From Botryllus schlosseri (taxonomy: Eukaryota), in NCBI GenBank assembly GCA_051294905.1, contig CM119371.1, forward strand, positions 20,400,001-20,464,000: a DNA stretch of 64,000 nucleotides, given 5' to 3'. This document shows positions 25,964-41,765 of the stretch, piece by piece; the first letter of the stretch is position 1; each line of letters opens with the position of its first letter. The notes under the pieces were generated by a model that made no database searches, had not been told where the DNA came from, and worked only from the letters and a program-made list of their open reading frames with translations. The translations under genes and the position numbers were made by a program.

Positions 25964-26820
25964 AGTAGTGTAGCTGGTATCGTTATACGCAGACCAATCA
26001 CAGAAGGCCACGTCGCCTTAATTGCCACGCCTATATGACACCCATTGTCACGCCTACAGGATGCCCATTGCCAAGTCACCTGCCAGTGCCACATCGTGTG
26101 TATTTATGAGCAAATTTCATTGTTTTGTGAATTTCAATACCGGTTTTCCATGTATATTTAGCAATATGTATTGAATAACTTGAAATGTATCATCACTAAT
26201 TAATTAATATAAAATGCGATTTTAAGCGCTGCGACTTGAAAATATTAATATAATAACTTACTTTTTTGGATATAAATAACATTCAGATTACACATAAATT
26301 TCGAAAACTATGATGTCAATAGAATACTATAGTTGTCAGATATTCACAGATAACACTCATCAACGTTGAACTAGGTGCGGGGTTCTATGATGATATATCA
26401 AAATTCTACACATCATCACTAATTAATTAATTCATATAAAATGCGATTTTGAGCGCAGACAGATCGCGGTTTCGATTGCCGAGGTCTCCGCATTTCATGA
26501 CCTAATATGAACGCACACTACAATTGAATTCATTCCAATACCTGCAAATTTACTTTGCATGTCGAGTATAAGGATAATTTAATCAGCGCTAAACGCCAGC
26601 GGACTAGCCGTAGGCGCACAATTCTCGGCGTTACAATTAAACAAACTTTTCGCGGCAGGTACGCGATTCCTAACGGTTTCTACAGTTTCCACATTTCACG
26701 ACTTATTTTCTTTGGACGCATACAAGCGATTCCCAAGGTCGAGGCTATGGAAACAAATCAAGCATGAGTACGTAAATCTTGAGCTTAGATCTCCGAGATT
26801 CTTGTATGCAACTAACATTA
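25964..26820 (+). repeat. Left TIR, outer 857 bp
   Basis: Reverse complement of 59365-60221; no mismatch seen in spot checks; match ends at ACTAACATTA (26811-26820). Confidence 0.96.
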
Positions 26821-26841
26821 TAGACAACCATTCGACAATAT

Positions 26842-27183
26842 TCAACCAGCAATAATGTTTTCGATATAGTGCATCATGAACAGCGACACGCCGATCAATT
26901 CAAATTCAACAATGGGATCCCCCCGCACAATTATGAAGCCCGATTTGCGTTGAATATTAACGATACCAACAAATCGGAAGATCTCTTTTCCCCCTACATC
27001 TATGATAGAGGTACCATTCCATTGACCACGAATAACTTGAGATTCTGTGGGATCGAAATCGCAATCAAATAATATGAGAGTATCTTTTCCAGCTTTCAGA
27101 ACTTGGACAATCGTGTCAGGACTATATCGCAACACCGCAGTATGTGTGCGTACAAAACGATACACAGTTATTTTTAGCGCCAT
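26842..27183 (-). CDS. Hypothetical 113-aa protein (left-arm copy)
   Basis: ATG-started, protein-like beta-rich ORF; identical mirror copy at 41167-41508. Confidence 0.5.
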   Translation of the reverse strand: MALKITVYRFVRTHTAVLRYSPDTIVQVLKAGKDTLILFDCDFDPTESQVIRGQWNGTSIIDVGGKEIFRFVGIVNIQRKSGFIIVRGDPIVEFELIGVSLFMMHYIENIIAG

Positions 27184-28855
27184 CCGTACGACTTATGTTC
27201 AACTTGCAGTGCAACTGACGATTTAAAGACGGTAATATCTTTTTCGAGTGCGACAATGGCACTCGTAAAGGTTATACAAACATTACCTTAAACTACTATT
27301 TACTTCATTGCAGAATTGATCGAAGTTACGATTGCAGCTGAAAAGAGTAAAGAGGTGAAAGCTAGTGATGATGACCTAACAATTACTGCTTGGAGCTGTC
27401 TATCCTTATTAAGGTACTTGGTAAGAACGTGGTAAAGCCATTGAACAGCAATTTTACACTCGCGGTTTTATTGTTATATATTAAAATTATACGTACATTT
27501 CGCGCGATCAACTACGCATGATTTTATGTGAATTTCACCGATAGTGTCCGAGTTCTATGTGACATAAGTACAATTTCAGCATCGGTATTTGCAATAAAGC
27601 CTAAAAATTAGAGTTGCACCTTTTCGCGATTTATGCAGCTATTCGCGCAGATTTGCGTTAATGAAAAAAGTAAAAATTATGTACTCAAGTAGGTTGATAG
27701 GTTGATGTAGCAGAGTGCAAAACGGGTTAATATACCTGCTACCGATATTACCCCATTAACAAGTTATACAGGTGTAGCCAACACCGCAATCGCACGGATT
27801 TGGCTTTTATGATAAGTAAACATATGAAGTCAAGATTGACCCCGTACGCCTGCTAGATATTTACATCAGAAAACGAGGTTGTAGCTTGCGTTGCGTGTTT
27901 TGATTTCTAAGCAGGTCGGTATGGCAAAAATTGGTATTATGTATCTTGATGTATAGTTAGTTACATCCTGTGTGATCTTGGGTCTCATTATCCATGATAT
28001 TGTCGCCAATTAAATTCGGCGAGTAACGTAGTGGCAGCCTACGCCCCACAGCTGTAACACCAATGGATCCGTCGGCGATTTGACATTTCTATTGCTATAT
28101 GGCACATTAATCATTATATTCAAGTTGTCATTGATCTGTTCCAATAGTCGAAGGTAATAACGCTGATTTAATTTGACTTTGGTGATGACATGATTAATAG
28201 CCTAGTTATCAGGAGTATGGCTAAAACCCGGATTAGGCTGTACCGCTCCAATGCTATGATCTCAGGTCAATATTTGTCAAATTCTATAATATTAGACCTA
28301 TAATTGTGGCTCGTCAACTGTCCGCTAGCTGCAAAATTATAACGCAACAGTTTTCGCGATATCGTGATGCATTTCTACTCTCGAATGGTGTTTGACAAAC
28401 TATGCCAAGTAGGCTATCAACTTGTACTTGTATTCGTACTTTACCTTTACACGTCGTTTTTGTATAATGGATACTAATTTTATAAAAAAATAAACAAAAA
28501 GCGCGAAAAATTACATTTTATCCCGGAACGTAGCAAGAAAAAGCGTATAAATTTTGTAAAGTAGATAGAAAACTACACTATTCCGATGCACTGAAGACTC
28601 TTACACTCTGGATTTTGTGCAGTATATACTAATTTTACATTGCGGAGTATTCCATAAACGTTAATCCAGTGATCCTTCTTCTATTTTCAATCACGATCCG
28701 CTTATTATTCTAGGCTTCGAAGCCCACACCCAGTACGTTTTATGAGGATTAATATTTTTAGATTAAATATAGCGTATCGAGACTTCGTGAAAGTTACTTG
28801 GAAATAGTTATTTCTACCCTAATTTAATAGATTTCTCAGATATCGTTACAATGGA

Positions 28856-28938
28856 ACTGGGTTGAGCGAGCGGTAGAGGCGTTGGACTTAAGTTTCAATG
28901 AACAGGTGTTCACGTGGGTTCGAACCCCACACCCAGTA
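28856..28938 (+). tRNA. tRNA-Leu(UAA), left-arm copy
   Basis: Acceptor ACTGGGT/ACCCAGT, anticodon loop CT-TAA-GT, long variable arm TGAAC/GTTCA, T-arm GTGGG-TTCGAAC-CCCAC, discriminator A, TTTT downstream. Confidence 0.88.
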
Positions 28939-39411: not shown

Positions 39412-39494
39412 TACTGGGTGTGGGGTTCGAACCCACGTGAACACCTGTTCATTGAAACTTAAGTCCAACGCCTCTACCGCTCGCTCAACCCAGT
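39412..39494 (-). tRNA. tRNA-Leu(UAA), right-arm copy
   Basis: Mirror of 28856-28938. Confidence 0.88.
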
Positions 39495-41166
39495 TCCATT
39501 GTAACGATATCTGAGAAATCTATTAAATTAGGGTAGAAATAACTATTTCCAAGTAACTTTCACGAAGTCTCGATACGCTATATTTAATCTAAAAATATTA
39601 ATCCTCATAAAACGTACTGGGTGTGGGCTTCGAAGCCTAGAATAATAAGCGGATCGTGATTGAAAATAGAAGAAGGATCACTGGATTAACGTTTATGGAA
39701 TACTCCGCAATGTAAAATTAGTATATACTGCACAAAATCCAGAGTGTAAGAGTCTTCAGTGCATCGGAATAGTGTAGTTTTCTATCTACTTTACAAAATT
39801 TATACGCTTTTTCTTGCTACGTTCCGGGATAAAATGTAATTTTTCGCGCTTTTTGTTTATTTTTTTATAAAATTAGTATCCATTATACAAAAACGACGTG
39901 TAAAGGTAAAGTACGAATACAAGTACAAGTTGATAGCCTACTTGGCATAGTTTGTCAAACACCATTCGAGAGTAGAAATGCATCACGATATCGCGAAAAC
40001 TGTTGCGTTATAATTTTGCAGCTAGCGGACAGTTGACGAGCCACAATTATAGGTCTAATATTATAGAATTTGACAAATATTGACCTGAGATCATAGCATT
40101 GGAGCGGTACAGCCTAATCCGGGTTTTAGCCATACTCCTGATAACTAGGCTATTAATCATGTCATCACCAAAGTCAAATTAAATCAGCGTTATTACCTTC
40201 GACTATTGGAACAGATCAATGACAACTTGAATATAATGATTAATGTGCCATATAGCAATAGAAATGTCAAATCGCCGACGGATCCATTGGTGTTACAGCT
40301 GTGGGGCGTAGGCTGCCACTACGTTACTCGCCGAATTTAATTGGCGACAATATCATGGATAATGAGACCCAAGATCACACAGGATGTAACTAACTATACA
40401 TCAAGATACATAATACCAATTTTTGCCATACCGACCTGCTTAGAAATCAAAACACGCAACGCAAGCTACAACCTCGTTTTCTGATGTAAATATCTAGCAG
40501 GCGTACGGGGTCAATCTTGACTTCATATGTTTACTTATCATAAAAGCCAAATCCGTGCGATTGCGGTGTTGGCTACACCTGTATAACTTGTTAATGGGGT
40601 AATATCGGTAGCAGGTATATTAACCCGTTTTGCACTCTGCTACATCAACCTATCAACCTACTTGAGTACATAATTTTTACTTTTTTCATTAACGCAAATC
40701 TGCGCGAATAGCTGCATAAATCGCGAAAAGGTGCAACTCTAATTTTTAGGCTTTATTGCAAATACCGATGCTGAAATTGTACTTATGTCACATAGAACTC
40801 GGACACTATCGGTGAAATTCACATAAAATCATGCGTAGTTGATCGCGCGAAATGTACGTATAATTTTAATATATAACAATAAAACCGCGAGTGTAAAATT
40901 GCTGTTCAATGGCTTTACCACGTTCTTACCAAGTACCTTAATAAGGATAGACAGCTCCAAGCAGTAATTGTTAGGTCATCATCACTAGCTTTCACCTCTT
41001 TACTCTTTTCAGCTGCAATCGTAACTTCGATCAATTCTGCAATGAAGTAAATAGTAGTTTAAGGTAATGTTTGTATAACCTTTACGAGTGCCATTGTCGC
41101 ACTCGAAAAAGATATTACCGTCTTTAAATCGTCAGTTGCACTGCAAGTTGAACATAAGTCGTACGG

Positions 41167-41508
41167 ATGGCGCTAAAAATAACTGTGTATCGTTTTGTAC
41201 GCACACATACTGCGGTGTTGCGATATAGTCCTGACACGATTGTCCAAGTTCTGAAAGCTGGAAAAGATACTCTCATATTATTTGATTGCGATTTCGATCC
41301 CACAGAATCTCAAGTTATTCGTGGTCAATGGAATGGTACCTCTATCATAGATGTAGGGGGAAAAGAGATCTTCCGATTTGTTGGTATCGTTAATATTCAA
41401 CGCAAATCGGGCTTCATAATTGTGCGGGGGGATCCCATTGTTGAATTTGAATTGATCGGCGTGTCGCTGTTCATGATGCACTATATCGAAAACATTATTG
41501 CTGGTTGA
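41167..41508 (+). CDS. Hypothetical 113-aa protein (right-arm copy)
   Basis: Mirror of 26842-27183; ggATGG start context. Confidence 0.5.
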   Translation: MALKITVYRFVRTHTAVLRYSPDTIVQVLKAGKDTLILFDCDFDPTESQVIRGQWNGTSIIDVGGKEIFRFVGIVNIQRKSGFIIVRGDPIVEFELIGVSLFMMHYIENIIAG

Positions 41509-41537
41509 ATATTGTCGAATGGTTGTCTATAATGTTA

Positions 41538-41765
41538 GTAGTATTATACACAGGGTTTATACCCCCTCCAATCAGCGTCGAGTATTTGATCACGTGACAT
41601 CTGTTAGCCAATCAGAACGCAGAACAATGTGGGTGTGGTTCCAATACGAGAGAGGTTTTGGTTGTGCGAGAGATGGCATAGTTCCAGTCCAGTAACGCTG
41701 AGATATTTATTACGTCATTGCGTAAGTTGATTACCTATGATTGCGTATTGCAGCATGATTACGTC
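41538..41765 (+). repeat. Left TIR, displaced inner 228 bp
   Basis: Reverse complement of 59137-59364 (a few mismatches near 41737-41739); on the right side it is contiguous with the outer TIR. Confidence 0.93.

Follow-up and report, generated by a model that had tools for sequence, protein, structure and literature searches.

Palindromic Polinton-type elements in the genome of Botryllus schlosseri and a Polinton integrated into one of them

The stretch of Botryllus schlosseri DNA analysed here (GCA_051294905.1, contig CM119371.1, positions 20,400,001-20,464,000; hereafter the window) comprises 64,000 nucleotides (nt) without an N and contains two nested mobile elements. The outer one, element P, is palindromic from end to end over 16,423 bp (25964-41536 and 59372-60221), and the inner one, element Q, is a complete, young Polinton, which integrated later into P, around 850 nt from its right end. 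P belongs to a large, young and apparently undescribed family with about 240 centres in this genome, which was searched as 495 Mb in 219 contigs. Confidence in this explanation is high, a grading that applies jointly to the nesting, the P family and the mechanism proposed for it below.

Structure of the nested locus

Two inverted arms around a 45-nt spacer had been described in the original prediction, and both an inverted-repeat scan and a BLAST comparison of arm against arm bear this out, placing the left arm at 26806/26811-34320 and the right arm at 34366-41539/41544. The largest inverted pair of the scan joins 26806-32349 with 36001-41544 (5,544 nt, 100% identity); further in, pairs of 1,134, 389 and 134 nt enclose the 45-nt gap. 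When the left arm is aligned by BLAST with the reverse-complemented right arm, identity is 99.96% over 5,539 nt on the outer side, with 2 mismatches, and 99.46% over 1,652 nt on the inner side. The 332 nt by which the left arm exceeds the right one correspond to a short interspersed nuclear element (SINE) of 320 nt and its 12-bp target-site duplication (TSD), both found in the left arm only. The scan further returned an 857-nt inverted match between 25964-26820 and 59365-60221 (100%) and a 243-nt match between 41530-41772 and 59130-59372 (97%). P is bounded by the 6-bp TSD GGCAGT, beyond which unique DNA begins, and its ends are of the Polinton type (AGTAGT...).

Element Q extends from 41537 to 59365 (17,829 bp) and has its own AGTAGTA termini, its own terminal inverted repeats (TIRs), which are identical for 200 nt and decay beyond, and its own 6-bp TSD, AATGTT. 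The left flank of Q finishes with ...CTATAATGTT and its right flank opens with AATGTTAGTTGC; the uninterrupted P reads ...CTATAATGTTAGTTGC and contains AATGTT only once, whereas the motif is present twice around Q (41531-41536 and 59366-59371). The sequence starting at 41537, AGTAGTATTATACA, is the reverse complement of the right-hand end of Q, and all three Q relatives that were fetched stop at the base equivalent to position 59365 (...GTATAATACTACT, ...TACTACT), followed by unrelated DNA. Since Q has its own ends and AATGTT lies on both sides of it, Q is a separate Polinton that integrated into P, and the nesting is an ordinary integration event.

The original prediction had read the same region differently, namely as a 19.5-kb Polinton with 1,085-bp TIRs, the left one of which is split between its positions 857 and 858 by a 14.7-kb palindromic cassette, or as a satellite of about 16 kb that became fused to its helper, an event for which we considered a replication error such as a template switch at the edge of the shared terminal homology. 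The arithmetic behind it is correct: removal of 26821-41537 leaves matching ends of 1,085 nt, both breakpoints lie no more than 10 nt from where P and Q stop matching, and 5 nt at the P-Q joint, TTAGT, can be read as an overlap. However, this joint is fully explained by the terminus of Q and its 6-bp TSD, and the Q relatives end at the same base as Q. As Q has its own terminus and TSD at the joint, the supposed 1,085-bp TIR is the sum of the 857 nt of P and the TIR of Q. The genome search agrees with this parse. The right-hand joint (query 58900-59700) is spanned by the window alone among the best 40 of 769 candidates scored, 8 places matching only the inner Q side (positions 1-466/467, 90-95% identity) and 31 only the outer 857-nt P side; likewise, the window is the sole place spanning the joint between the right arm and Q among the best 40 of 318 candidates. 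Among the scored matches, Q relatives lack the 857 nt, no other place joins these to the TIR of Q, and elsewhere the 857 nt always run on into arm sequence. At either end of the composite, the outermost 857 nt are thus part of P and not of the Polinton. An interim model of our own, in which the template switched from a strand of one element to a strand of the other where the 857 nt shared by P and Q end, was likewise ruled out by the Q terminus and TSD. Of the earlier proposal, the separate element of about 16 kb, built of outer repeat, arm, hairpin and arm and devoid of replication genes, is retained, while the fusion to a helper gives way to normal integration; a split TIR or a replication error at this joint is very improbable.

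Near-perfect arms around a short spacer are also the look of fold-back chimeras, and the second arm could be a computational or library artefact of palindromic long reads that is absent from the chromosome. A scaffold gap at the centre of one related locus and the fact that reads could not be made locus-specific fit such an origin. The two arms are, however, distinguishable: at 36001-36012, the right arm carries the empty site for the SINE of the left arm, and Q with its TSD interrupts just one of the two arms. Around the palindrome as a whole lie a 6-bp TSD and unique DNA, 5 further fetched loci show this architecture with other TSDs, and the spacer is conserved with 240 occurrences in the genome. 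With a SINE and its TSD in one arm, Q in the other and a TSD around the whole, a fold-back assembly artefact is excluded at this locus, and we consider the artefact the least probable of the alternatives. The spacer was also considered as a sequencing adapter; this was rejected on its conservation at other genomic loci, and we take its sequence to be unlike that of SMRTbell or nanopore adapters.

The palindromic family

Stand-alone copies of the palindrome, which the original prediction had suggested to look for, were found by genome search. The query, 26400-27400, takes in 421 nt from the end of the outer repeat and 580 nt from the start of the arm; of 837 candidates, the best 40 were scored. 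Apart from the window, at least 15 places carry this junction at full length (positions 1-989 or more) with 96-100% identity, and these matches, together with a further pair covering 163-1001, make six inverted pairs spaced 12.7-16.4 kb. The copies C3a, C9, C6 and C5 are single palindromes over their full length of 12.8-15.5 kb with arms that are 99.48-99.77% identical, C9 being truncated at one end. C17 has arms of 6,933 nt (99.96% identity) around a centre of 1,138 nt and is 99.8-99.9% identical to the palindrome of the window; neither the SINE nor a second copy of the inner 1.09 kb is present in it. In C1b, the arms measure 3.2 kb and the interior is rearranged. Perfect 6-bp TSDs surround five of the six fetched copies (CAGGTG, ATGGTT, CAGGAC, GATATC and GACGAA), and the ends read AGTAGTG or AGTAGTA. 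Because distinct TSDs flank whole palindromes, P elements must have been inserted repeatedly as complete units.

The best-conserved part of P is its 851-nt centre (33918-34768), for which 360 matches were obtained from 1,121 candidates. Inverted arms lie on both sides of the centre in 16 of 17 cases, the window included; the exception is C1b, which is truncated. The high number of candidates had suggested that the centre might be an independent foldback miniature inverted-repeat transposable element, an idea that was dropped when all four fetched centres that appeared to stand alone turned out to lie within larger palindromes. The spacer or loop (34321-34365) is non-palindromic and G/T-rich on one strand, and both its sequence and its asymmetry are kept across P subfamilies. 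A 19-nt motif of the loop was counted 240 times in the genome (110 + 130), against 0 for the reversed control. In the window and in other P centres, the loop is built from telomere-like units (TTAGG, TAGGGTTAGG, TTTAGG), possibly left over from the formation of the turn-around end. A match of the central hairpin to the Rfam family mir-BART19 (34.7 bits, gathering score 100) was treated as an artefact of shape.

A change in P is usually found in both arms. In four-way alignments, in which both arms of two copies were compared at a time, the window and C5 differ by 19 mirrored changes and 1 + 1 changes private to one arm, and the window and C17 by 3 mirrored and 2 + 2 private changes; for C3a and C6, which are much more diverged and whose alignment is less certain, the numbers are 892 and 4 + 4. 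In none of the pairs do both copies show asymmetry at one and the same site. A mutation begins in one arm, yet the differences are mirrored; one arm is therefore regularly copied onto the other, and the arms of P evolve in concert.

The absence of replication and capsid genes from the arms, as originally predicted, holds for the family. In a tblastn search of 14 P-type sequences, matches were obtained for only 4 of the 21 open reading frames (ORFs) of the window, namely the 113-aa ORF, the two Bcl-2 genes and, weakly, ORF 57467-58018; the other 17, including the family-B polymerase (PolB), integrase, ATPase and capsid protein of Q, gave none. ORFs of at least 90 aa in 8 P elements are limited to a 95-aa ORF, Bcl-2, a few short frames and one long interspersed nuclear element. 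The latter, a retrotransposon without long terminal repeats, is inserted in the P-type element C1c (C1:5298400-5318000), where its intact ORF of 1,246 aa (endonuclease, reverse transcriptase and RNase H; positions 6987-10727) breaks the symmetry. When the 35 best of 354 polymerase candidates were compared by eye with 100 listed of the 240 loop sites, no polymerase copy besides that of the window was found within 20 kb of a loop site.

Foldback architecture occurs in other superfamilies of transposons, and P could be an ordinary foldback-type DNA transposon or a local inverted duplication whose likeness to Polinton ends is coincidental. The missing core genes would be in line with this, as would the failure to find an autonomous partner with the same 857-nt end. 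However, P copies have TSDs of 6 bp like Q, and at their ends the P subfamilies and Q have in common the AGTAGT motif and a CCAATCA box around 30 nt further inward. In addition, the tRNA-Leu and Bcl-2 genes of P are paralogous to accessory genes at the ends of Q, the arms lack subrepeats (Tandem Repeats Finder reported only two short arrays of 53 and 69 nt in 8.4 kb of arm), and TSDs around whole palindromes argue against their formation in place. An origin unrelated to Polintons is thus improbable. With Polinton-type ends, a 6-bp TSD, no core genes and related Bcl-2 and tRNA-Leu genes, P is classified, on its sequence features, as a non-autonomous Polinton derivative.

The cargo of P was largely predicted correctly: the Bcl-2 gene (Pfam PF00452, E 4.5e-22), the tRNA-Leu gene and the orphan ORF at 26842-27183 are present, while the assumed leucine-rich repeat (LRR) gene obtained only sub-threshold Pfam scores (LRR_1, E 0.006-0.02; LRR_6, E 0.05). 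Two of the cargo genes had been described as paralogues of genes in the core, in accordance with 72% amino acid identity between the Bcl-2 proteins of P and Q and 72 of 84 matching nucleotides between the tRNA-Leu gene of P and that of Q at 56599. The nearest Bcl-2 proteins in the database are only about 30% identical to that of P. The Bcl-2 frame is intact in all seven copies compared (six of P type and the Q paralogue), and the ratio of nonsynonymous to synonymous substitution rates (dN/dS) is 0.30-0.49 in 18 pairs with synonymous differences (dS up to 0.65; dS is 0 in three further pairs). Judged by these ratios, the Bcl-2 gene of P is under purifying selection; the 95/113-aa ORF, looked at for selection in its own right, showed very few changes between copies.

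Transcripts were sought in raw single-cell reads of one run (X24), around 3% of which was covered; an identity of at least 97% was required, so that any copy at least 97% alike could be the source of the reads. In total, 98 reads match, four of which, from two different starts, show a gap of 197 nt with GT..AG borders on the Bcl-2 strand. Splicing replaces the last 16 codons of a 174-aa frame, yielding a protein of 195 aa, in which the BH2 motif is completed after GGW and which ends in a hydrophobic tail. The Bcl-2 gene of the P family is thus expressed and spliced, and the position of its intron is presumably the usual one of cellular Bcl-2 genes. In the Bcl-2 gene of Q (42225-42300), no GT donor follows the GGW codons and no second exon is obvious; its C-terminal end may differ from that of the P gene.

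In contigs of runs X1 and X15, the centre (34816) is directly followed by the subterminal region (40654-40663) and around 5.84 kb are omitted, which suggests a shorter subfamily of deletion derivatives. Sequencing runs from three other organism codes contain 41-46% of the sampled words of the arm, and the P family may extend beyond B. schlosseri.

Polinton Q and neighbouring features

Among the proteins of Q (Table 1), the integrase was identified with Pfam by its rve domain (PF00665, E 2e-13) and chromodomain (E 6e-10) and the packaging ATPase of the A32 type by PF04665 (E 1e-9). The polymerase ORF of 1,309 aa contains the family-B motifs DANSLY, KLCGNSAFG and GDTDS; its best atlas clusters carry PF03175 (score 0.97), searches against Pfam and the PDB sequences were blank, and no locus encoding it was found in viral contigs. 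Other PolB copies in the genome comprise, among the best 35 of 354 candidates, at least 10 at 98-99% identity without stops, 1 at 91%, 10 at 65-67% and 13 at 61%. The 425-aa capsid candidate gave no hit in a search of PDB sequences, and one of its homologues is named 'Major capsid protein' in UniRef. Its AlphaFold model (pLDDT 71.5, pTM 0.72) resembles double jelly-roll capsid proteins of virophages, iridoviruses and chloroviruses (E 1e-13 to 1e-15); in the Foldseek comparison, the Sputnik capsid protein scored best (E 2.5e-15), with those of mavirus and PBCV-1 at E ~1e-13. The modelled fold thus identifies the protein as a predicted double jelly-roll major capsid protein. An adenovirus-type protease and a minor capsid protein had no Pfam match among the 19 Q ORFs scanned with sequence profiles. 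Genes related to cell death and ubiquitin (Bcl-2, UBC E2 and BIR/IAP) and three tRNA genes sit at the two ends of Q (41779-43512 and 56599-58018).

The SINE of the left arm belongs to a family with 2,125 candidates in the genome, many copies of which are 98-100% identical, and the family is, judged by this identity, probably still active. A tRNA-derived SINE with a (CAA)n tail is also present at 23991-24120 of the window. Outside the composite, other inverted-repeat pairs were observed, among them a unit of around 1.5 kb with inverted ends of 266 nt (98% identity; 21214-22753), and dispersed repeats with 85-99% identity lie on either side of the composite (12185-13134, 23081-23972 and 61347-62278); all of these are probably other transposons.

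Table 1. Features of the composite of P and Q (positions in the 64,000-nt window)
Feature	Position	Strand	Remarks
Left TSD copy of P	25958..25963	.	GGCAGT
P left arm	25964..34320	+	terminus AGTAGTGTAGCT...; includes 857-nt terminal stretch 25964-26820
P 113-aa ORF	26842..27183	-	95-aa form in other P copies; no family match
P tRNA-Leu (TAA)	28856..28939	+	mirror copy 39411-39494
P Bcl-2	29396..30180	+	exon 1 29396-29869; GT..AG intron 29870-30066 (197 nt); exon 2 30067-30180; product 195 aa
LRR-like weak frames	31037..31946	-	sub-threshold Pfam; few RNA reads on matching strand of mirror copy
tRNA-derived SINE, (CAA)n tail	32350..32669	+	320 nt, left arm only; 12-bp TSD CTTCGAGAGGCT at 32338-32349 and 32670-32681
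P centre, conserved across family	33918..34768	.	851 nt; inverted arms of ~403 nt each and loop
P loop at symmetry centre	34321..34365	+	45 nt, asymmetric, G/T-rich; conserved across P subfamilies
P right arm up to Q insertion point	34366..41536	-	includes AATGTT, left TSD copy of Q, at 41531-41536
P Bcl-2 mirror copy	38481-38954 and 38170-38283	-	
Q	41537..59365	-	termini AGTAGTATTATACA...TGTATAATACTACT; 17,829 bp; perfect 200-bp TIRs
Q Bcl-2	41779-42282	+	
Q tRNA-Ala (TGC)	42643		
Q UBC E2	42784-43254		
Q tRNA-Pro (TGG)	43440		
Q double jelly-roll capsid (predicted)	44751-46028	-	
Q rve+chromo integrase	48149-49162	-	
Q A32-type ATPase	50047-50778	-	
Q protein-primed PolB	50672-54601	-	
Q tRNA-Leu (TAA)	56599		
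Q BIR	57044-57430	+	
Right TSD copy of Q	59366..59371	.	AATGTT
P right arm, last 850 nt	59372..60221	-	terminus ...AGCTACACTACT
Right TSD copy of P	60222..60227	.	GGCAGT

Origin of P and related systems

Q resembles known Polintons/Mavericks in its protein-primed PolB, rve integrase, A32-type ATPase, double jelly-roll capsid protein, TIRs and 6-bp TSD. P shares with them the 6-bp TSD, the AGTAGT end motif and paralogues of accessory genes; it differs in the absence of any core gene and in that its 'TIR' is the whole element, with arms of 6-8 kb. For vertebrate Mavericks, the consulted passages of PMC8097293 give TIRs of 46-1,447 bp with a mean of 402. Since a Polinton by definition encodes polymerase and integrase, as stated in an excerpt of PMC5499653, and P encodes neither, P can only be a non-autonomous derivative.

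P would be mobilised in trans by the integrase and the protein-primed polymerase of Polintons via the shared end architecture, a route proposed because of its 6-bp TSDs and Polinton-like ends. The gene set near the end of P (tRNA-Leu and Bcl-2) resembles the accessory ends of Q, and the family may have been founded when the end of a Polinton that bears accessory genes was copied back on itself (fold-back or snap-back); the turn-around point would be today's conserved 45-nt loop. Such a product would have two identical origins and a length close to that of its helper (15-16.4 kb vs 17.8 kb for Q). The presence of one loop in all subfamilies argues for a single founding event or a specific turn-around element rather than many random snap-backs. 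In protein-primed replicons, TIR panhandles serve as origins, according to an excerpt of PMC4046053. The panhandle of P would be a full hairpin, formed when the displaced single strand folds back, and mismatch correction within it would homogenise the arms before the next integration. We infer that P is a helper-dependent, snap-back-type derivative of a Polinton.

Several points weigh against this proposal. Among the scored matches, neither an autonomous Polinton with the 857-nt end of P nor a parent genome colinear with an arm was found, so that the snap-back origin is deduced from architecture alone; the comparison took in 35 of the 354 PolB candidates and 100 of the 240 sites with the loop motif. 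The concerted evolution of the arms could also be explained by arm-to-arm gene conversion in the chromosome, with no need for hairpin replication. The loop motif had no match in viral contigs and only one in metagenome contigs, where a contig matched over just 20 nt by chance, so that no extrachromosomal or packaged DNA of P was seen. Contigs of runs X1, X5 and X15 are dominated by other copies and leave the junctions of this locus unconfirmed. At C13 (14004300-14028300), a scaffold gap of 100 N (positions 12067-12166) lies at the symmetry centre; palindromes in this assembly are therefore not always cleanly assembled. The C13 locus resembles two adjacent P copies, and its structure is unreliable.

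A further-reaching possibility, which is put forward tentatively and with less than even confidence, is that P is a snap-back defective polintovirus genome that turned into a heritable satellite lineage of around 240 copies. One arm would be the unit of inheritance; P would need only the polymerase, integrase and capsid of a helper and would bring an expressed anti-apoptotic Bcl-2 protein and a tRNA to the infected cell. As such a satellite, P would pass through a full-length single-stranded hairpin in each round, and a change in one arm would be either copied to the other or erased.

Adenovirus incomplete particles with defective genomes are one analogue of a snap-back origin. P resembles snap-back defective genomes in that one genome end is present twice, as inverted copies on the two sides of a turn-around point; such a molecule has two identical origins but no replication genes and would need a helper. 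For the adeno-associated virus, it was argued, in the consulted part of PMC8235507, that snapback subgenomes can serve as useful satellites. Such snap-back genomes are transient products in infected cells and have variable turn-around points, whereas P is heritable, integrated and diversified and has one conserved loop and a selected cargo.

The arms of FB and Galileo elements consist of tandem subrepeats, and these elements rely on other transposase superfamilies. In P, by contrast, the arms are unique sequence with genes and only two short tandem repeats, and its ends and TSD are of the Polinton type. The likeness to Foldback (FB-like) and Galileo elements, as portrayed in passages of PMC3573991, is that two inverted arms make up the element, wholly or for the most part.

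Large palindromes can also arise by fold-back priming, as in the ribosomal DNA palindrome of Tetrahymena. Those formed at a short inverted repeat beside a break, as outlined in an extract of PMC10622511, share with P a big palindrome and a short non-palindromic centre. They arise in place in chromosomes, whereas the TSDs on the outside of the whole element show that the palindromes of P were already complete on insertion.

No description of an end-to-end palindromic Polinton-type element was found in the full-text literature searched, which leaves Repbase and subscription journals outside its scope; a prior description is possible. The nearest structures described are terminal palindromes of 52 nt in protist virophages, as given in part of a preprint (10.64898/2026.07.28.741278). 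What is new is the palindromic P family with its foldback or snap-back architecture, while the non-autonomous Polinton derivative is an already known kind of element.

The P family is unusual in that it combines near-perfect palindromes of 12-16 kb and Polinton-like insertion with none of the Polinton machinery and with a spliced, expressed and selected Bcl-2 gene. If the snap-back origin is true, long-lived satellite lineages can arise from defective genomes of protein-primed DNA viruses, and the P family would be a natural system for studying how the terminal repeats of such replicons stay identical. Whatever the mechanism, hundreds of near-perfect palindromes of 2 x 6-8 kb with 45-nt spacers represent a notable load of potentially fragile DNA in this genome and are a likely source of long double-stranded RNA.

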